Shown here: one piece after another, positions 3,879 through 23,009 of the stretch
Layout of the letters: the number at the start of each line of letters is the position of its first letter
Position numbering within the stretch: position 1 is the first letter of the stretch
Assembly (NCBI GenBank): GCA_963805605.1
Contig: CAWDUX010000002.1
Location: 119,672-183,671 of the forward strand
Direction of reading: 5' to 3'
Source: an uncultured Actinomycetota bacterium
GTDB taxonomy: Bacteria > Actinomycetota > Actinomycetes > Mycobacteriales > Micromonosporaceae
Length of the DNA: 64,000 nucleotides
Position numbers and translations under genes: made by a program
Notes under the pieces: model-generated
What the model was told of the DNA's origin: nothing
Database searches by the model: none
The model's input: only the letters and a program-made list of their open reading frames with translations

Positions 3879-4508
3879 GTGCCAGAGGAAGAACGTGTCA
3901 CCGTGCATATGTGGTTCGACCCGGCGTGCCCGTGGGCCTGGATCACCTCGCGTTGGCTGCTGGAGGTGGAGCAGGTGCGCCCGGTCCGGATCGAGTTCCG
4001 GGTGATGAGCCTCGGCGTACTCAACGAGGACAAGGACATTCCGGACGACTACCGGACCATGCTGTCCGGCACCTGGGGCGCGGTACGGGTCTGTATCGCC
4101 GCCCAACAGAAGTTCGGCATCGAGGTCCTGCGCGACCTGTACACCGCGCTGGGCACCCGCATCCATCTGCAGAAGGCGACGAAGGATCGGGACCTGCTGG
4201 TCGCTGCGCTCACCGAGGCCGGACTGCCCGAGGACCTGGCCGACGCGGCCGACTCGACGGAACTCGACCAGGAACTGCGCCGCAGCCACCACGAGGGGAT
4301 GGACCCGGTCGGCTACGAGGTCGGCACCCCGGTGATCCACGTACCGGGCCTGGACGGCGAGCTGATCGCGTTCTTCGGCCCCGTCGTCACCCCGGCGCCG
4401 AAGGGCGAGGCGGCCGGCCGGCTCTGGGACGGTGTACTCACCGTCGCCGGCACCGACGGCTTCTTCGAGCTGAAGCGGACCCGTACCCGCAGACCGATCT
4501 TCGACTGA
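3879..4508 (+). CDS. DsbA-like mycothiol-dependent oxidoreductase (Rv2466c family)
   Basis: WFDPACPWAWITSRW CxxW motif, VGTPVI, FFGPV, FFELKR; divergent from pepN; GTG after AAGGAG. Confidence 0.9.
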   Translation: MPEEERVTVHMWFDPACPWAWITSRWLLEVEQVRPVRIEFRVMSLGVLNEDKDIPDDYRTMLSGTWGAVRVCIAAQQKFGIEVLRDLYTALGTRIHLQKATKDRDLLVAALTEAGLPEDLADAADSTELDQELRRSHHEGMDPVGYEVGTPVIHVPGLDGELIAFFGPVVTPAPKGEAAGRLWDGVLTVAGTDGFFELKRTRTRRPIFD

Positions 4509-5924: not shown

Positions 5925-5973
5925 TGCTGCCCGGGGGCCGACCCCCGATGATGTCGTCGGCCCCCATCGGCGG

Positions 5974-8375
5974 TCACTCGCTACGCAGCCCGTCGGGCCG
6001 CATCAGCCGCCACAGCGCCGGCATGCTCAGCGCCGTCACCAGCAGCACCACCGCGGCGCCGATGCCGATGATGCCGGCAGCGCTCTGCCAGTCGAACGAC
6101 ATCGGCTGGTGGGCCATCCGCAGCAGCGCAGCGCCCAGCAGTATGCCGGCCCCGATTGCCAGCAACAGACCGACGACCAGCGATATCGCCGTCTGCCAGA
6201 GAATCGACAGGGTCAGGGTCCGTCGACGTGCACCGAAGGCCGCCAGCACGGCCAGCGGACGTTTCCGGGTCCGGAGCTGCTCCAGGGTGTTGACCAGCAG
6301 GCTCGCTCCGATCAGCAGGAGTACTGCGATGGCGCCGGCCGACAGTCCGCGGCGGACGGTGCGGTAGTTCGCATCGAAGTGGCTGGTGGCGCCAGGCACC
6401 GTCACCGACATCAGTGGGGCGAGCCGCGCCGCGGCCGTCCGCACCTGGTCGACCGCGTCTTCTCGGCTGGGGTCGGTACGGATACGGAACTCCGGGGTCA
6501 GCGGAGCGGTCATCGCACTGTGCCGCTGCGCCGCCGGTGTCAGCAGCACCCCGGTGTACGGGACCTGGTTAGGGTCGTCACGAGGATTCGCGTGCCTGAT
6601 CCCGGCGGGGATCCGCCAGTTGAAGGACGGTGGGGCGGGTCGGGCGTAGCCCTGGATCGACACCATGGTGCCTGGTGTGAGCGGTCCGGTGTCGGGACCT
6701 GTCAGCGTGAATGCGTCGCCGTCCGCGCAGCGCCCGAGAATGGCGACGCCACGCAGCGCCCGAGAATGGCGACGCCACGCAGCGCAGCGCAACTGCCGAC
6801 GAGAATGCTGGCCGGCTGGTCGGTGCGGGGTTCCCGACCGCTGACGGTCAACGTCGCGTCGGCGAGTGTCCGTACGGACCGTACCCCGGGTGTTGACCGG
6901 AACCGTGCCGCCATCTGTTCGGCCCGCGTGCTGTCGACGGCACCCTCGTTCTGCACGATCAGCTGGTCGCGGTGCGGGTTCTGGTCCCTGGGGCCGGCGG
7001 CGACGTAGGTGTGCTGTATGCCAGCGAACAGGGTCTGCAACGCGATCGCTCCGGCGACCGCGACGGTGATACCGCTGACTGCCCGGGCCGCCGAGCCGCT
7101 GTCCAGTTGTAGTCGCCGTACCGCCAGCTGCCAGGCCACGCTGCCACCGCGCAACCGCCGTACGAGCGCTTCCACGCCCCACGGCAGCAGTGCTGCGACG
7201 CCGAACAGGAGAAGTACCACCCCGCCGGTGAGTTCGATGTCGACCAGGCTGCTGCCGGTGTTCGGTATCCCGCGCATCAGCGGCAGCAGTGCGGCCAGCC
7301 CGATCACCAGGGTCAGCAACCGCCACCACAGCCGACGGGTCCGTGCGGCGGCCTGGCGTACCACGCCCAACGGTTCGGCCACCACGCGACGCAACGCGAC
7401 GATCGTGACCACGACGGCGGCGGCGGGCAGGCCGAGCACTATCAGTAGCGCCAGTACGGGACTGGGCCGTACGTCGGAGGAGAAGGCGCTGATCCCGTCG
7501 AAGGTCACCAGTTCGACGAGCTGCCGCCCGGCCAGGAAGATCGCCGTGCCGACGATCAGACCGAGTATCGCACCGATCAGTGCCTCACCGGCCGCGATAC
7601 GCCGGGTCATCTGTCGGTCGGCGCCGACGAGACGTAGCGCGGCTTGTTGCCGGTCACGGGACTCGGCGCCGAACCGGACCGCGGCGCCGATGAACACCGC
7701 TACCGGTATCAGCAGCACCGATATGCCGACCAGCAGGATGACCGACAGTGTGGCGTCCAGCCCGGACCGGCCCCGCTGCGTACCGAACCGGGCCACGTGG
7801 AACGCCACAGGGTTGTCGCCGTCGAGCGTGTCCGAACCGAGGTAGTACCAGTACTCGTTCGGTCCGCCGAGCCCCGAATCGGCGATGGTGCCGGTGATGT
7901 GCTGGTACGGGATGCGTCTCCGCAGCAGCGTGCCGTCCGGTGAGTTCAGCAGGTCGAGCAGCTTGGGCGAGACCACCAGCTCGCCCGGTGCCGGCACCCT
8001 GGTCAGACCGGGCGGCACCACCGGATGTGCGCTCTCGGACTCGATCATGAAGCCGCTGACCGAGATGTCCCGGTAGTCGGTGGCGGCGTCGCGCATCAGT
8101 ACCGAATGCGCGGTTCTGTGCTCGGCGGGTATGTAGACCCGGGCATTGTTGCGGGCATGGCGTGCATCCAGGATGGCGGGCGCCGAGGCGGCGAGCAGCA
8201 GCATGCCGACGCCGAGCCCGACCCCGACGGCGGTCAGCGCCATCCGGGTCCAGGTGGACCGGCCACCTCGGGTGACCAACCGCACCCCGATGCCCAGATC
8301 GCGTACCCACCGGACGGCCCGGCCCGGGCCGGTGCCCGCCTCGACGTCGGGTCGGCTCTTGTGGTCGAGGCTCAT
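5974..8375 (-). pseudogene. FtsX-like ABC transporter permease broken by a 26-bp tandem duplication
   Basis: N-terminal part in ORF 6702-8375 and C-terminal part in ORF 5974-~6750; removing one 26-bp copy (6726-6751/6752-6777) gives one 792-codon frame with two FtsX TM blocks. Confidence 0.85.
6726..6785. repeat. 26-bp direct tandem repeat CGCAGCGCCCGAGAATGGCGACGCCA x2 plus partial CGCAGCGC
   Basis: Read directly from the sequence. Confidence 0.95.
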
Positions 8376-17037: not shown

Positions 17038-18312
17038 GTGACCACAGCCGACGCAGCGAACAGAACCAGTCGGGGCGGGGCGGTACTTGTCGCAGCGCTG
17101 GTGGTCGACGCCGTAGGCAACGGGTTGTTCATGCCGCTGTCGCTGGTCTTCTTCACCAAGCTCACCGACGTGCCGTTGGCCCTGCTCGGCGTGCTGATCA
17201 GCGTCGGCAACCTGATCACCCTGCCGATTCCGGTGTGGGCCGGCACGCTGGCCGACCGGTTCGGCGCGCTGCCCCTGGTGATCGGCGCACAACTGCTGCA
17301 GGCCGTCGGCTTCTTCGGCTACGCCTGGGTACACGGGCCGGTCGGGATCTTCATCACAGTGACCCTCACCGCAGTGGGCGTGCGGTTCTTCTGGTCGGCC
17401 ATCTTCACCGCCATCGCCGACTACACCGACACCAACCCGTCGACGCGCAGCAAGGACACCTGGTACGCCTGGTCCAACATGGCCCGTACCGGCGGCCTGG
17501 GGGCCGGCGGCCTGGTGACCGGCGCGGCCATCGCGGGCGGCAGCGCCGCCGGCTACCGGGCGACCGCCTTCGCCGCCGCAGGCTGCTTCGCCCTCGCGGC
17601 GCTGGCCATCGCGATCTTCGTACGGGTGCCCCGGCTGGTGCACGAGCACCCGGAGACCGGGCCGCGCGGCTACGGCATGCTGCTGCGCGACCGGCCGTTC
17701 CTCGGCCTGATCGGGGTGAACACGGTGTACGCGCTGTCGAGCATGATGCTCGGGCTGGCACTGCCGACCGTGGTGCTGACCGGGCTGCACGACCCGGCCT
17801 GGCTCAGTTCCGGCCTGCTGGTCGGTAACACGGTGCTGATCTCGGCGCTCGGGGCGCCGGTGATCCGGCGGGTGGCGGGGTACCGGCGGACCAGGCTGGT
17901 GATGGCCGCCGCCGGACTGTGGACGTTGTGGTGCCTGCTGTTCGCCACCCTCAGCCCCGGGCACCTGATCTGGACGGTGGTGCTGATGGTGGCCGCCACG
18001 CTGATGTTCACCCTGGCTGAGACGCTGCACGCGCCGGTCTCCGCCGCACTGTCGGCCGCTGCGGCGCCCGCGTCGGCGCGTGGCCGCTACCTGGCCACGT
18101 TCCAGTACTCGTTCACCATCGCCGGGATCATCGCGCCGACGTTCTTCACCACCCTGTTCGCCATCCACCGGTCGGTGCCGTGGCTGGTGCTGGGCGCACT
18201 CGACGCGGCCAGCATCGGTGTCATGCTGCTGCTGGAACGCACCCTGCCCACCGCCGCGCTGCGCGAACGGCCCCGATCATCGCCGGCTGCCGAGGAGCAG
18301 GTGGCGTCCTGA
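17038..18312 (+). CDS. MFS transporter
   Basis: About 12 hydrophobic helices; GTLADRFG motif A; ARGRY in the C-terminal half. Confidence 0.92.
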   Translation: MTTADAANRTSRGGAVLVAALVVDAVGNGLFMPLSLVFFTKLTDVPLALLGVLISVGNLITLPIPVWAGTLADRFGALPLVIGAQLLQAVGFFGYAWVHGPVGIFITVTLTAVGVRFFWSAIFTAIADYTDTNPSTRSKDTWYAWSNMARTGGLGAGGLVTGAAIAGGSAAGYRATAFAAAGCFALAALAIAIFVRVPRLVHEHPETGPRGYGMLLRDRPFLGLIGVNTVYALSSMMLGLALPTVVLTGLHDPAWLSSGLLVGNTVLISALGAPVIRRVAGYRRTRLVMAAAGLWTLWCLLFATLSPGHLIWTVVLMVAATLMFTLAETLHAPVSAALSAAAAPASARGRYLATFQYSFTIAGIIAPTFFTTLFAIHRSVPWLVLGALDAASIGVMLLLERTLPTAALRERPRSSPAAEEQVAS

Positions 18313-18874: not shown

Positions 18875-19072
18875 TCAGGCGTGTTGGTTCTTCACGGTGG
18901 TGACGAATGCCTGCCAGGCGTCGGGTGCAACGGTGAGGACGGGGCCGCTGCGGTCCTTGCTGTCGCGGGTGGCGACGGCGTCGGCCACGAATGCCACCAC
19001 GACACAGGCACCGTTGTTACCGCTGCGGCTCGACGTGAACCACCGGGCGTGAGCCAGATCCGTTGCGACCAT
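18875..19072 (-). CDS. DUF397 (BldB/Scr2-like) protein, copy B
   Basis: WFTSSRS..NGACV.VA, RDSKD, W.AF motifs. Confidence 0.9.
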   Translation of the reverse strand: MVATDLAHARWFTSSRSGNNGACVVVAFVADAVATRDSKDRSGPVLTVAPDAWQAFVTTVKNQHA

Positions 19073-19133
19073 ACCGATCTCCAACCTATCCGCCGTTGAC
19101 CATTGCCTGACCGAGCTGGATGCATCGCCTGAT

Positions 19134-19331
19134 TCAGACGTGCTGGTTCTTCACGGTGGTGACGAATGCCTGCCAGGCGTCTGGTGCAACGGTGAGGACG
19201 GGGCCGCTGCGGTCCTTGCTGTCCCGGGTGGCGACCGCATCGGCCACGAATGCCACCTCGACGCAGGACCCGTTGTTGCCGCTGCGGCTCGACGTGAACC
19301 AGGCTGCTTCGCGATGGTCGGTCGCTGTCAT
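19134..19331 (-). CDS. DUF397 (BldB/Scr2-like) protein, copy A
   Basis: WFTSSRSGNNGSCVEVA, RDSKDRSGPVL, WQAFV. Confidence 0.92.
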   Translation of the reverse strand: MTATDHREAAWFTSSRSGNNGSCVEVAFVADAVATRDSKDRSGPVLTVAPDAWQAFVTTVKNQHV

Positions 19332-19344
19332 GACAGCCTCCAGA

Positions 19345-20190
19345 CTATGTGGCGCTGATCAGCGTCCTGAGCAACGCCAGGGAATCTTCGGGGGAGAGTG
19401 CGACGTCCCGCACGCTGGCCGCAGCCATCCTATAGGTGGCCACGTCGGCCTGGTCCTGTACGTACACGGCGCCGTCGAGCAGTTCCGAGTAGGCGACCGG
19501 CCGTGCGTCCTCGAATTCCAGCACCACGAACTCGCCTGTGACCGCAGCGTGCGGGCCATCCTCGGGACGCACGATCTGGATGGTGACGTTCGGGAGTTCA
19601 GCGTAGGTGATGAGCTGGCGGTACTGCTCATCCCGCACCGCCTGATCGCCGGTACGGAGCCGGAGGGCAGCCTCACCGATGACGGCGTGCAGGTGCAGCG
19701 GCGGGTTCTCGGTCAGCCTGGCGGCTCGGGCCAGTCTGAATGCGACGAAGCGTTCGTTGTGATCGGGCCGTACGAAGCCGGTGGACCGTGTGACCTCGTC
19801 CGCATAGCTCATGGTCTGCAGCAGGCCGGGAATCAGGGTCGGTTCGTAGACGAATTCACTGCGGGCCAAACCTTCGAGGCCGACAAAGGTCCGGAACCAG
19901 TCAGGTACGACGTGGCTCCACGGTGCCCACCAGGTATGTGCGTCCGACTGTCGGGCCAGGGATGTGAGCCGCTCGATGTCGGACGGGTCGGCACGGTAGA
20001 GGCCGAGGAGTTTGGCGACATCGTCGGAGCTCTGCTGATACCGGCCACTCTCCATACTGGACAGCTTTGCCTTGAGGATCCCGGTGCGGCGACCCGCTTC
20101 CGCCTGCGAGAGAGCGGCCTGCTTCCGGTAGTTCGTCAACTCCACACCGATCAGCCAACGCAGAGCAGAGGGGTCACTGCGTTCAACCAT
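19345..20190 (-). CDS. XRE HTH + DUF5753 regulator (WhiJ/Scr1-like)
   Basis: N-terminal HTH; FVGLE, LIPGLLQT..YA, AVIGEAAL, L...AELPNVTIQIV, YSELLDG motifs; directly upstream of the DUF397 genes. Confidence 0.92.
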   Translation of the reverse strand: MVERSDPSALRWLIGVELTNYRKQAALSQAEAGRRTGILKAKLSSMESGRYQQSSDDVAKLLGLYRADPSDIERLTSLARQSDAHTWWAPWSHVVPDWFRTFVGLEGLARSEFVYEPTLIPGLLQTMSYADEVTRSTGFVRPDHNERFVAFRLARAARLTENPPLHLHAVIGEAALRLRTGDQAVRDEQYRQLITYAELPNVTIQIVRPEDGPHAAVTGEFVVLEFEDARPVAYSELLDGAVYVQDQADVATYRMAAASVRDVALSPEDSLALLRTLISAT

Positions 20191-20338
20191 GGTTCTGCCT
20201 TCCGCGTGGCTGGTTTCCGCCCGTTGTCGACTTGGGTCCTACCGAATCCTCCCCGCCGGTCGCAAGTGTCCTCAGCGCGGGTCGGTTACGGCCATCAGGT
20301 GTCCAATAACTGACAGTATGGCAAAGTTGGATTTGATT

Positions 20339-20358
20339 GTTTCGCGAAACGTTTCGCG
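20339..20358. promoter_or_regulatory. Overlapping palindromes GTTTCGCGAAAC / CGCGAAACGTTTCGCG in a divergent promoter
   Basis: Perfect 12-bp and 16-bp palindromes read directly, in an AT-rich intergenic stretch. Confidence 0.55.
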
Positions 20359-20403
20359 TTAGATTCGGACATCGCCGGACAGTCGCCGTGAGCGACCGAG
20401 TGG

Positions 20404-20811
20404 ATGGAGATGGACCGAGTGGATGGAGATGGCATGAGCGGACAACAACCGGAACTGATCACCGGACCAGGCACGATGACCGATGCCGAGATGACTTCGT
20501 TGCTGGAGGAGCTGGCTGCGGACGAGACGCCGAGGTTGGTGGCGCTGTACGACGTTGCGCCCGACAACACTGCGGCGTGCGTGTTTGCCTGGGGCCTGGT
20601 CTTCGACAGCCGGGTGATCCTGGTGCATCCGGGGCCGGAGAAGACCACGTACGGCTCGTTGGGGTCACTGGACCGGGCCCTTCGACTGTTCGGCCGTAGC
20701 GGGCGGCGGCTGCGGATCGTACGACCCCGGGTCGCTCCCGACCGCGACTTCGAGGCGGCCTGGCCCGGCGACGAGGACGAGTACGCCGACCTGCCCGTAC
20801 CGATCGGCTGA
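20404..20811 (+). CDS. Hypothetical protein divergent from the DUF5753 regulator
   Basis: GC3-biased; PRLVALY...VFAWGLVF...ALRLF pattern; start may be 20476. Confidence 0.65.
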   Translation: MEMDRVDGDGMSGQQPELITGPGTMTDAEMTSLLEELAADETPRLVALYDVAPDNTAACVFAWGLVFDSRVILVHPGPEKTTYGSLGSLDRALRLFGRSGRRLRIVRPRVAPDRDFEAAWPGDEDEYADLPVPIG

Positions 20812-20865
20812 ACTTCGGCCGCGCGGCGCCAGGCCAGCCGATCGGCCCGGCGCCGCGGGCTGTAC

Positions 20866-21102
20866 CTACGAGGTGTGCTTCACGAAGGTGCCGCGTTGCG
20901 CCACCGTGAACACGAGATCCCGTCGCCTGAGCTCACCGATGGCATGGCGTACGGTCGCCCGGGCAACGCCGGCCTCCTGAACGAGGCACGCCTCCGACGG
21001 AATCGCCCTGTTCGGTGGGTAGGCACCGGATCTGATCCGACGCTCCAACTCGTCGGCGATCTGCAGGTATACGGCCACCGGTCCGTCCCGATCGAGCTCC
21101 AC
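20866..21102 (-). CDS. Stand-alone GntR-family winged HTH protein, probably leaderless
   Basis: VYLQIADELERRIRSG, IPSE, VARATVRHAI..L, QRGTFV; TACGGT -10-like hexamer 6 nt before the GTG. Confidence 0.85.
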   Translation of the reverse strand: MELDRDGPVAVYLQIADELERRIRSGAYPPNRAIPSEACLVQEAGVARATVRHAIGELRRRDLVFTVAQRGTFVKHTS

Positions 21103-21144
21103 GGGTCAACCGTAGAGACAGACTGCGACATCATGAGCCTGCGT

Positions 21145-21543
21145 CGCGTTGATCATGGCACCAGCGGTGTTGACCATGGCCTCATCGTCACGACACGCCG
21201 ACAGCGGTGGCCTCAATGCCATGATCAACGCGATAACGCTCAACGCCGTTCACTTAAGGACGGCTCCTGCGGCTGGATCCGCCGACGATCCAACCCCACT
21301 GCGCATTTTCCCCGAATAGACAGTTCTGCCCGAATTTTAGAAACGGACTTTCGGGGAATATGCACCTCTGAGCGCATGGAAAAGAGCATTTTTCCCGAAT
21401 GTACCTTTTAGAGAATCGGACCTAAGATCCATTCGGGGAAAATGCTCACCCCCGAGCGAAGGAAAATCGCTCAGAGGCGCGACCTCACTCGCATCGCCGG
21501 AACCTTAAGTGAACGGCGTTGGCGATAACGCCATGATCAACGC
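21145..21543. repeat. Non-coding nested inverted-repeat element (~400 bp; REP/MITE-like or structured RNA)
   Basis: Perfect IR pairs 21145-21160/21217-21232 (16 bp), 21146-21159/21530-21543 (14 bp), 21241-21259/21503-21521 (19 bp), 21303-21317/21431-21445 (15 bp), 21365-21374/21468-21477 (10 bp); four alternating GCATWTTYCCCGAA copies. Confidence 0.85.
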
Positions 21544-21600
21544 CCCGAAGGCCCCGGGCTGGCGCGTCACTCGACGCCCACAACGCTGGCCACATGCAGG

Positions 21601-22830
21601 TCAGAAGGACTCGATGCTGACCGGGGCTCGGTGCCAGCCGAACGCGGTACTCGCCGCCGCCACCGCGCCGGGGCGTTGTTCGGTGACGTGGCCGGCGGCG
21701 GCCAGCGCGGCCAGCGGCGTACCGCCCAGGTAGACGGCGCTGAGCCGGTCGATGTCCAGTACGAGATCCGCCGGCGCCTCGGTGCGTTCACAGTGCGCCG
21801 GGGCGCCCGCCTCGGCGCGCAGCCGCCAGCGGCCCGCGTTGTCGCTGAGCAGGTCGTCGGTGATGTCCAGGACCACGTCGACACCGGCGGCGTACCGGCG
21901 GCCGGTCAACGCGGCCGGCAGGTCCAGGATGCGCAACCACAGCCCGTCACTGGTACGGGCGCTGAGCCGGCGACGCTCGGTCACCAGGTACTGCAGCGGC
22001 TCGTCCACCGCGGCGAGGCTGTACTCGACCCGCCGGCTCAGGTCGATGCTGCACACGTACTGCCACAGCTGCCGGTACGCGGCCAGATCGGCGGCGACCA
22101 GCTCCTCGACGTTCACCACGTGCTGCGGGCCGCTGTCGTCACCGTCACGCCGGATCCGGAACAGCGCATAGCCGTCCGGCCCGTCCGGTCCCTCGTGCAG
22201 GACGGTACGCAGCCTGGAACGACCCCGCCGCCACGACTCCAGGTCGGCGCTCCAGTAGCGCCACCACTGCATCGGGCGGGCCGAGTAGCCGGGCCGGTCC
22301 CGACGGGCCGCGTCGAGAATCCCCGCGACCGTGTCGATGAACTCGGCAAGTTCCACCTCCCGCAGCTGGCCGTCCGGCGGGCCGGACAGCACGGTCAGCT
22401 CCCGGGTGTGCGCCGAGTACGCCACCGCCGAGCTGGCCGGCCCGTACCCGTACCGGCCGTAGATGGCCTCCTCGCTGGGCCACAGGATCGCGACCGGCTC
22501 GGTGCCGGTGGCGTGCAGGTCGGTCAGTTGCCGACGCATCAGCCGACTCAGCAGCCCGCGGCGGCGGTGGGTGCCGGCCACCCCGACGGCGGTGACGTGC
22601 GCGGCCGGCAGCAGGCCGCCCGGGACGCTGAACTCCCGGCCGAAGGACAGGGCGGTACCTACCACCCCGTCCCTTTCGTGGATGACGGCCAGGGTCCGCG
22701 GCAGGTCGATCAGGCCGCGCTCCAGCTGCGCCTCGTCGGCGTCGTAGTCCTTGCCGAACGCCCGTGCGAAGCAGCGGCAGAACGCTACGTACTCGTCCTC
22801 GGTGATCGGGCGGAGCTGATAGGGACTCAT
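21601..22830 (-). CDS. Eis-family (enhanced intracellular survival) GNAT acetyltransferase
   Basis: VTAVGVAGTHRRRGLL, SEEAIYGRYGYG, LWLRILDLPAAL..RRY, SCP2-like C-terminus ending in Phe. Confidence 0.9.
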   Translation of the reverse strand: MSPYQLRPITEDEYVAFCRCFARAFGKDYDADEAQLERGLIDLPRTLAVIHERDGVVGTALSFGREFSVPGGLLPAAHVTAVGVAGTHRRRGLLSRLMRRQLTDLHATGTEPVAILWPSEEAIYGRYGYGPASSAVAYSAHTRELTVLSGPPDGQLREVELAEFIDTVAGILDAARRDRPGYSARPMQWWRYWSADLESWRRGRSRLRTVLHEGPDGPDGYALFRIRRDGDDSGPQHVVNVEELVAADLAAYRQLWQYVCSIDLSRRVEYSLAAVDEPLQYLVTERRRLSARTSDGLWLRILDLPAALTGRRYAAGVDVVLDITDDLLSDNAGRWRLRAEAGAPAHCERTEAPADLVLDIDRLSAVYLGGTPLAALAAAGHVTEQRPGAVAAASTAFGWHRAPVSIESF

Positions 22831-23009
22831 GCCCACTGTGTATCCCACCGGAGGGCGTACTGCGTGCGGTTTATCCGGCCGCTGGTGGGTATTCCCCCAG
22901 ATCACCTGGGGGTTTGCCCGGAACTGGTGGAATCGGACTGACCGGGCGGGGCCGGTTCGCGCACGCTGGATACCCTCGACAGGCAGGAAATGACGAGGGG
23001 GGAGCCGCG

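Follow-up and report, generated by a model that had tools for sequence, protein, structure and literature searches.

A probable nested composite of three interspersed repeat families in a Micromonosporaceae genome and a candidate partner nuclease for one of them

The DNA analyzed here (the window, 64,000 nucleotides) corresponds to C2:119672-183671, i.e., to part of contig C2 of genome G000 (assembly of 5.9 Mb, 69% GC, 93% complete). Judged by its closest relatives, the genome comes from an uncultured soil bacterium of the Micromonosporaceae. Between a GntR-like and an Eis-like gene, it contains a region of about 400 bp that is filled with inverted repeats, and this raises the question whether a single structured element or several independent ones are present. 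The earlier note, made from the letters alone, had described one element built from five nested inverted repeats. Whole-genome searches in G000 found its parts apart from each other, namely a palindromic repeat (A) at 24 loci, an insertion (B) at four, and a hairpin (M) at 60. Given these independent occurrences at dozens of other loci, A, B, and M are separate families and do not form a single element. We consider it probable that window positions 21146-21543 are a nested composite of these three interspersed repeat families, a reading that includes an inferred partnership of M with a nuclease encoded elsewhere in the genome.

Three repeat families at one locus

An A-type palindromic repeat was originally located between the Eis-like and the GntR-like gene. 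B, a miniature inverted-repeat transposable element (MITE) related to the IS4 family of insertion sequences (IS), entered A between the inner and the outer right-hand words, with duplication of the 10-bp sequence GCGATAACGC, and carries two M hairpins of 60 nt as an inverted doublet. Such components are all of known kinds, be it MITEs, the insertion of IS into palindromic repeats, or mosaics resembling repetitive extragenic palindromic (REP) sequences. What would be new and interesting, as far as the sequences suggest it, is a REP-like system with a partner enzyme that does not belong to the HUH type. The features of the region are listed below by window position, with helix-turn-helix abbreviated as HTH and REP doublets forming hairpins as REPINs.

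21146-21159, plus strand: word W1, outer left word of A, GCGTTGATCATGGC
21167-21180, plus strand: word W2, inner left word of A, GTGTTGACCATGGC
21181-21217, strand not assigned: loop of the A element, 37 nt
21218-21231, minus strand: word W2', inner right word of A, GCCATGATCAACGC
21230-21239, plus strand: target-site duplication, copy 1, GCGATAACGC, composed of the last GC of W2', a 6-nt spacer, and the first GC of W1'
21240-21521, strand not assigned: B, IS4-family-derived MITE, 282 bp
21241-21259, plus strand: left terminal inverted repeat of B, 19 bp, CAACGCCGTTCACTTAAGG
21303-21363: M hairpin unit 1, GCATTTTCCCCGAA - 33 nt - TTCGGGGAATATGC
21386-21445: M hairpin unit 2, inverted relative to unit 1, the pair forming a REPIN-like doublet
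21503-21521, minus strand: right terminal inverted repeat of B
21522-21531, plus strand: target-site duplication, copy 2, GCGATAACGC
21530-21543, minus strand: word W1', outer right word of A, cut off from the rest of A by B
20866-21102, minus strand: GntR-family HTH gene, 78 aa, start codon 43 nt from W1
21601-22905, minus strand: Eis-like GNAT acetyltransferase gene, 434 aa, stop codon 57 nt from W1'

All inverted repeats listed in the earlier note (14-bp, 19-bp, 10-bp, and the left hairpin) are present in the sequence, but several of them have to be read differently. Word W begins at 21146, one base later than the reported start at 21145, and the left hairpin, given as 16 bp, pairs over 17 of 17 bp (21144-21160 with 21217-21233). 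The 14-bp repeat is not terminal but part of a pre-existing palindrome split by the MITE, and the 19-bp repeat that encloses the core represents the terminal repeats of that MITE. The 10-bp inverted repeat CCTCTGAGCG / CGCTCAGAGG lies inside 21362-21374 and 21468-21480. The description of the core was accurate: four copies of GCATWTTYCCCGAA alternate in orientation at 21303, 21350, 21386, and 21432 with a period of 82-84 bp, and the GC content is 46-47% compared with about 70% in the surroundings. The statement that no convincing open reading frame (ORF) exists likewise holds for the 282 bp of B. A target duplication had been denied; a perfect 10-bp direct repeat, GCGATAACGC, nevertheless flanks the 19-bp terminal repeats (21230-21239 and 21522-21531).

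As single-stranded DNA, the section 21137-21552 (416 nt) folds with −108.8 kcal/mol, whereas shuffled sequences reach −63.8 ± 4.3 kcal/mol (z = −10.6; 0 of 100 shuffles equally good). Both junctions between the outer repeat and the insert are spanned by short-read contigs from soil metagenomes, so the layout is no assembly artefact.

The distribution of the three families within the genome is uneven. Contig C3 (whole, 1.3 Mb) and contig C1 beyond 600 kb contain zero copies of M, A, or B, while all 60 M loci are located in the other 4.2 Mb of G000; about 17 would be expected on C3. Either the repeats are restricted to certain sections of the genome or C3 differs in its history.

The IS4-type MITE and the palindrome around it

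The four copies of B in G000 are 99.3-100% identical over the 281-bp body. They are located in the window, at C1:107054-108306, at C2:2101735-2102015, and in a duplicate of the latter locus on the small contig C5; the read depth on B is 2-4x that of the flanks. Removal of positions 21240-21531 in silico restores W-7-W-37-W'-6-W', which is the canonical spacing of A, and raises the minus-strand score against the A model from 46.6 to 61.9 bits. The independent B copy on C1 has its own exact 10-bp duplication (GCGCTGAGGC) and occupies the same position in another, diverged A element, which is about 87% identical to that of the window. Among about 22 terminal-repeat modules in G000, 14 are found 8-9 nt from a word W, the distance expected from an insertion into the GC-N6-GC spacer that separates two W words. 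B moved as a MITE, duplicated 10 bp, and took up a fixed position within an A element.

B-type ends were searched for by pattern in 300 Micromonosporaceae genomes. The complete 8.6-Mb genome of a member of another genus of this family (G166) contains six elements of 1,522 bp whose ends are identical to those of B at 18 of 19 positions. The three copies examined all have 10-bp duplications and are all located in the stem of a REP-like palindrome; the product of the one ORF scanned is an IS4-family transposase of 495 aa that matches NF033592 and contains the domains Nterm_IS4 and DDE_Tnp_1. Because its 19-bp ends match those of an IS4-family IS, B was assigned as a MITE of that family, the similarity to the IS of G166 being limited to the ends. 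An IS4-family DDE transposase would have mobilized B in trans and would have targeted the neighborhood of the W words. In common with IS4-derived MITEs, B has parent-type ends, a 10-bp duplication, near-identical copies, and no transposase. It differs from them in two respects: no autonomous partner with these ends was found in G000, and the interior is not derived from the IS but is a doublet of another repeat family, so that the M hairpin hitch-hikes on the MITE. IS1397 and ISKpn1 are IS elements that insert specifically into REP palindromes, and B and the full-length IS of G166 are likewise found inside palindromic repeats.

The canonical A element (W-7-W-37-W'-6-W') comprises 106 bp, and its inter-word spacers measure 6-7 nt across the family. 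About 10 of the roughly 24 loci in G000 carry full copies. In a comparison of 41 relatives, word W was restricted to G000 and its sister species G002, which is represented by the metagenome-assembled genome MFD00822.bin.1.227 (about 92% nucleotide identity in syntenic blocks). The A hairpins are probably REP/REPIN-like repeats, too, and the family would then be the counterpart of a paralogous nuclease that G000 has since lost.

B-type MITEs have themselves been entered by another IS. Two copies of a 969-bp IS5-family IS (286-aa transposase, NF033580; C1:107322-108290 and C2:643017-643985) have each inserted into the right terminal repeat of such a MITE, at TTAAG/CTTAAG, and show a duplication of the TAA type; this represents a third nesting layer.

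The M hairpin and a candidate nuclease

The M unit has 60 nt and consists of GCATTTTCCCCGAA, about 32 nt, and TTCGGGGAAAATGC. Of its 60 loci in G000, 31 are inverted doublets with a length of about 150 bp, and the other 29 hold a single unit or part of one; the 14-mer of M occurs in 88 exact copies and in 167 with up to two mismatches. Units are asymmetric and stand in opposite orientation within a doublet, in the fashion of a REPIN. An alignment of the 31 doublets and one of 38 oriented single units showed four almost invariant arms. The spacers are near-random except for a weak GTCC...GGAC inner stem and a one-sided WTAAC bulge. The inner stem is paired in 66% of the cells, compared with 31-47% in slid controls, and almost no compensatory change was found in it. 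The arms are uninformative for covariation because they are invariant. According to a crude gene prediction based on the GC content of third codon positions, 56 of the 60 loci are intergenic. M is located between convergent genes in 18 cases and between divergent genes in eight, against a genome background of 811 versus 810. No paper with the M motif was found in the literature searched.

The comparison with G002 allows for a view on how the copies evolve in place. Three syntenic doublets are 99-100% identical, but lie within locally near-identical blocks and therefore say little about conservation. The remaining syntenic doublets are 67-88% identical with the arms retained; spacers have drifted down to 67-76% identity with the arms intact. 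Arms that stay constant in place while the rest drifts suggest the recognition of a specific sequence rather than of an RNA fold. The presence of M also differs between the sister species at syntenic sites. At four gene junctions (C2:101250, 1451720, 2935380, and 2519640 in G000; loci L090, L098, L111, and L116 in G002), G000 shows a GC-rich hairpin of the terminator type in the position of the M doublet of G002.

Beyond the sister pair, the motif is abundant in only three of eight congeners, G000 (90 copies), G002 (165), and G005 (24). In a second genus, it was detected in all four sampled genomes with 30, 140, 150, and 444 copies; the hairpins occupy roughly 200 loci in one of these genomes, and the unit there consists of GCAGTTTCGGGGAAASTGC, 16-22 nt, and GCASTTTCCCCGAAACTGC. 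About 150 other sampled Micromonosporaceae genomes contain 0-5 motif copies each. Short tandem repeats (CCAGCA, CACGG/CACGA, and CCTCACT) are located directly beside M doublets, with copy numbers that vary between species (L054 at about 5950-5990 and L051; L019 at 4330-4395; L145 at 2900-2930).

Pairs of nearby M loci led to a gene encoding a 310-aa protein (C2:1145223-1146155), which is located between galK and icd and has an M doublet on either side. No second gene of this kind was found in G000. From the repeat density, the chance of a two-sided bracket within 250 nt is about 5e-6 to 5e-5 per gene. The protein shows weak Pfam matches to AbiEi_1, MTES_1575, and DUF559, those to DUF559 and MTES_1575 falling under their cut-offs. 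The orthologue in G002 has the same M bracket. The best homologues of the gene in G022, G166, and G101 (43% identity) are mutually orthologous and not syntenic with galK-icd, and are bracketed on both sides by the M-type units of their own genus; a second, paralogous locus in the second genus has M-type units on one side only. Among the congeners, only G000 and G002, which are rich in M and well assembled, yielded the orthologue. The M-less G001, G003, and G006 lack it at E ≤ 1e-15, and the M-less congeners have a different, GNAT-like gene in the galK-icd gap. G004 and G007 encode only paralogues with 30-37% identity, accompanied by W-like hairpins with GTTGATCATGG or GTTGATCAAGG words on both sides in G007 and clearly upstream in G004.

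More distant homologues are annotated as "endonuclease domain-containing protein" or "very-short-patch-repair endonuclease". Those of Micromonospora WMMD710, Klenkia, Modestobacter, and Blastococcus have hairpins of their own on both sides that are similar to each other, and five further homologues have hairpins on one side only. Two of these arm types are also dispersed in other Micromonosporaceae genomes. In all homologues examined, a DnaA-box-like TT(A/G)TCCACAGG box was identified upstream of the start codon, at a distance of tens of nucleotides and up to about 110; in Geodermatophilaceae, it has the reverse orientation. A cluster of such boxes was also detected between an M single unit and an M doublet at C2:2129850-2130070, 25 kb from dnaA. 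G000 and G002 share 99-100% identity over C2:1143400-1146400, a section that includes the nuclease gene with both of its M doublets and reaches into the end of galK, compared with about 92% around it, and the nuclease proteins of the two species are 100% identical. This near-identical block of 3 kb suggests a recent exchange between the lineages.

The AlphaFold model of the nuclease is confident (pLDDT 94). The best whole-chain structural match is the AbiEi-like Rv2827c, while the C-terminal domain superposes on the catalytic domain of I-Bth0305I (3r3p) with a TM score of 0.77 and a root-mean-square deviation of 3.0. The residues D240, E251, D253, H257, and D266 are invariant in 67 sequences. 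On the basis of this model, the candidate partner would be an AbiEi-like winged-helix DNA-binding domain fused to a predicted Vsr/DUF559 endonuclease of the EDxHD type. We infer from the brackets and their distribution that the M hairpins may be REP/REPIN-like partners of this nuclease. The M arms would be its recognition sites; after binding and possible nicking of the hairpins, the enzyme would preserve them or spread them further, as proposed here by analogy to REPINs and the REP-associated tyrosine transposases (RAYTs). Other mobile DNA would exploit the hairpins, as in the case of the IS4-family MITE that lands in one family and carries another. It is a serious but tentative possibility that the partnership extends across the Actinomycetota, with a vertically inherited AbiEi-type/Vsr-EDxHD nuclease recognizing the lineage-specific hairpins that bracket its gene and maintaining them or spreading them to tens or hundreds of intergenic sites; the M and the A hairpins would be its dispersed offspring. 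Such a system would be analogous to RAYT-REPIN with a PD-(D/E)xK enzyme in the place of the HUH enzyme.

REPs and REPINs with RAYT genes (REPtrons) and bacterial interspersed mosaic elements (BIMEs) are known from enterobacteria and pseudomonads. Most of what has been established about REP-like repeats and the enzymes that serve them concerns Proteobacteria with HUH transposases, and we know of no equivalent REP-enzyme system in high-GC Gram-positives. M and A resemble these repeats as dispersed intergenic hairpins that often form inverted doublets, with conserved arms and variable loops, lineage-specific types, and mosaic clusters. A single-copy gene for a predicted DNA-cutting enzyme that is bracketed by the same repeats is a further likeness. 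With 60 nt for M and 106 nt for A, the units exceed REPs and REPINs in length, and a GT[AG]G head is missing; M starts with GCATTTT and W with GCGTTGA. The bracketed gene does not encode a Y1 HUH transposase (PF01797) as for RAYTs, but an AbiEi-like winged HTH combined with a Vsr/DUF559 domain (PD-(D/E)xK, EDxHD-like).

A RAYT proper was considered and rejected. The Y1_Tnp matches in G000 (C1:704 kb, C3:1023 kb, and C2:381 kb) represent copies or remnants of unrelated IS and are not accompanied by M or A repeats; a single match to W in the vicinity, inside a response-regulator gene, is due to chance. At C3:1023684-1025623, the gene of an IS200/IS605-type Y1 transposase adjoins that of an IS4-family transposase with 47% identity to the IS of G166, and a second identical Y1 copy is located at C1:704526-704815.

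Other known systems share parts of the picture. The candidate nuclease shares the catalytic-domain fold with Vsr-like (EDxHD) homing endonucleases such as I-Bth0305I, and its E-x-D-G-x-x-H and D residues are invariant, but the gene is free-standing and not located in an intron or intein. The likeness to AbiEi antitoxins (Rv2827c) concerns the whole-chain fold, and the differences are the bracket of dispersed hairpins and the missing AbiEii partner: no AbiEii toxin gene was found beside the nuclease gene, whose neighbors encode galactokinase and isocitrate dehydrogenase. M and A are comparable to pneumococcal BOX, neisserial Correia, and enterobacterial repetitive intergenic consensus (ERIC) elements, which are palindromic repeats of modular build, occupy intergenic sites, measure 100-150 bp, and have conserved ends. 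There is no sequence relationship to the present repeats, and we know of no bracketed cognate gene for any of the three. No paper linking DUF559 genes with flanking or dispersed repeats was found in the literature searched.

Weighing of the explanations and surroundings of the locus

The main rival explanation is that the M and A hairpins are immobile and act as host-selected binding sites, for instance of a nucleoid-associated or regulatory protein, or at gene ends as insulators or transcription stops in both directions, while the nuclease gene would be bracketed by its own autoregulatory operator. We regard this as unlikely, although it accounts for several results. Invariant arms beside drifting spacers would follow from selection on each copy in place; the excess of convergent over divergent neighbors (18 to 8) is a bias toward 3' ends; and at the four junctions mentioned above, an M doublet in G002 stands opposite a terminator-like hairpin in G000. 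The N-terminal part of the nuclease is AbiEi-like with the fold match to Rv2827c, and AbiEi antitoxins are autoregulatory proteins that bind inverted repeats at their own promoters. On the other hand, the patchy spread over three of eight congeners and one other genus is unexpected for a conserved host function, copy numbers vary 15-fold in a single genus (30 to 444), and the sister species differ in the presence of M at syntenic sites. Moreover, no T-run follows the hairpins, and the endonuclease domain is conserved and appears catalytically intact.

Far less probable are two readings of the region as a functional unit at its present site, both of which the earlier note had listed as candidates. 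That it is a single structured non-coding RNA or a cis-regulatory leader between the Eis-like and the GntR-like gene is very improbable, in spite of the very strong predicted folding (z = −10.6) and the location of the flanking genes on the same strand. In a scan of 20600-22000 with Rfam 15 (E up to 10), no family came near its threshold: the best match reached 27 bits against a cut-off of 90, and the sub-threshold matches were hairpin look-alikes of plant microRNA precursors. Both strands fold alike due to the palindromic structure; the arms show no compensatory change, and the inner stem, paired in 66% of the cells, almost no double changes. The three modules occur independently at dozens of unrelated loci, the orthologous intergenic region of G002 is shorter and differently arranged, and the read search matched the region in soil-metagenome contigs only and in no RNA run. 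Hardly any credence can be given to an iteron-like or operator array in which the four GCATTTTCCCCGAA copies would bind the adjacent GntR-type regulator or a replication initiator. The 82-84-bp period, the AT-rich core, and the HTH gene at a distance of 43 nt speak for it. The copies are not direct repeats but alternate in orientation, the same motif occurs at 60 dispersed loci with unrelated neighbors, and the three other near-identical B copies have different neighbors as well. No replication gene is located nearby, the neighbors being the GntR-HTH and the Eis-like GNAT gene, and the orthologous GntR gene in G002 is not found beside such an array. Decayed junk is contradicted by the modular, dispersed, and strand-symmetric parts. 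The note's first candidate, a REP/BIME-like mobile mosaic served by a nuclease in trans, came close for the W palindrome and the M doublet, but B is an IS4-family MITE. Its suggestion to look for DUF559 genes next to the copies proved productive, the M-bracketed gene being of the AbiEi/DUF559 type.

The nested composite with its proposed nuclease partner also has to be weighed against several results that speak against it. With respect to B, no autonomous IS with B-type ends was found in the 93%-complete G000, and the best relative detected by tblastn, 47% identical to the transposase of G166, is not flanked by such ends. The copy at C2:2101735-2102015 has no duplication; its flanks are of the left-arm type on one side and of the right-arm type on the other, and it appears to be a recombinant between two insertions. 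In the window, an extra T (21240) separates the duplication from the left terminal repeat. An empty-site allele of the window copy was found neither in reads nor in G002, where the locus is rearranged, and for the B copies in general no clean empty site was found in G002 and G005, where the flanks are rearranged. Where G002 has M and G000 lacks it, the adjoining intergenic sequences cannot be aligned, and neither boundaries nor duplications are readable. The link between M and the nuclease is correlative at the level of sequence, and the nuclease gene family is far wider than the M motif. The M-bearing G005, an assembly of 1000 contigs, gave no match for the gene; its galK contig terminates in an M arm. 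Finally, a second, A-linked nuclease paralogue was not found in G000, though A elements are present.

For annotation, a seemingly exotic structured region of 400 bp resolves into the ordinary logic of mobile DNA, an IS4-family MITE with terminal repeats and a target duplication within a palindromic repeat. If the partnership is true, a very large family of "endonuclease domain-containing" proteins, whose role has so far been unassigned, gains a testable function, the origin of actinobacterial intergenic palindromes is explained, and a second, independent solution to the lifestyle of repeats with a domesticated enzyme comes into view. The window shows the dispersed side of such a system, i.e., the copy numbers, the invariance of the arms across genera, the co-occurrence within a genus, and the interplay with IS elements.

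At the window locus, the composite is most likely a passenger. No intrinsic terminator (GC-rich stem plus T-run) was found on either strand between 20700 and 21800, and no sigma-70-like promoter pattern was found at the locus. In G002, the gene order differs between the Eis-like gene and the match to window positions 18001-18271, and there is a single GntR-like match. The section 18875-20811 of the window contains a second small ORF on the minus strand (18892-19125, 77 aa).

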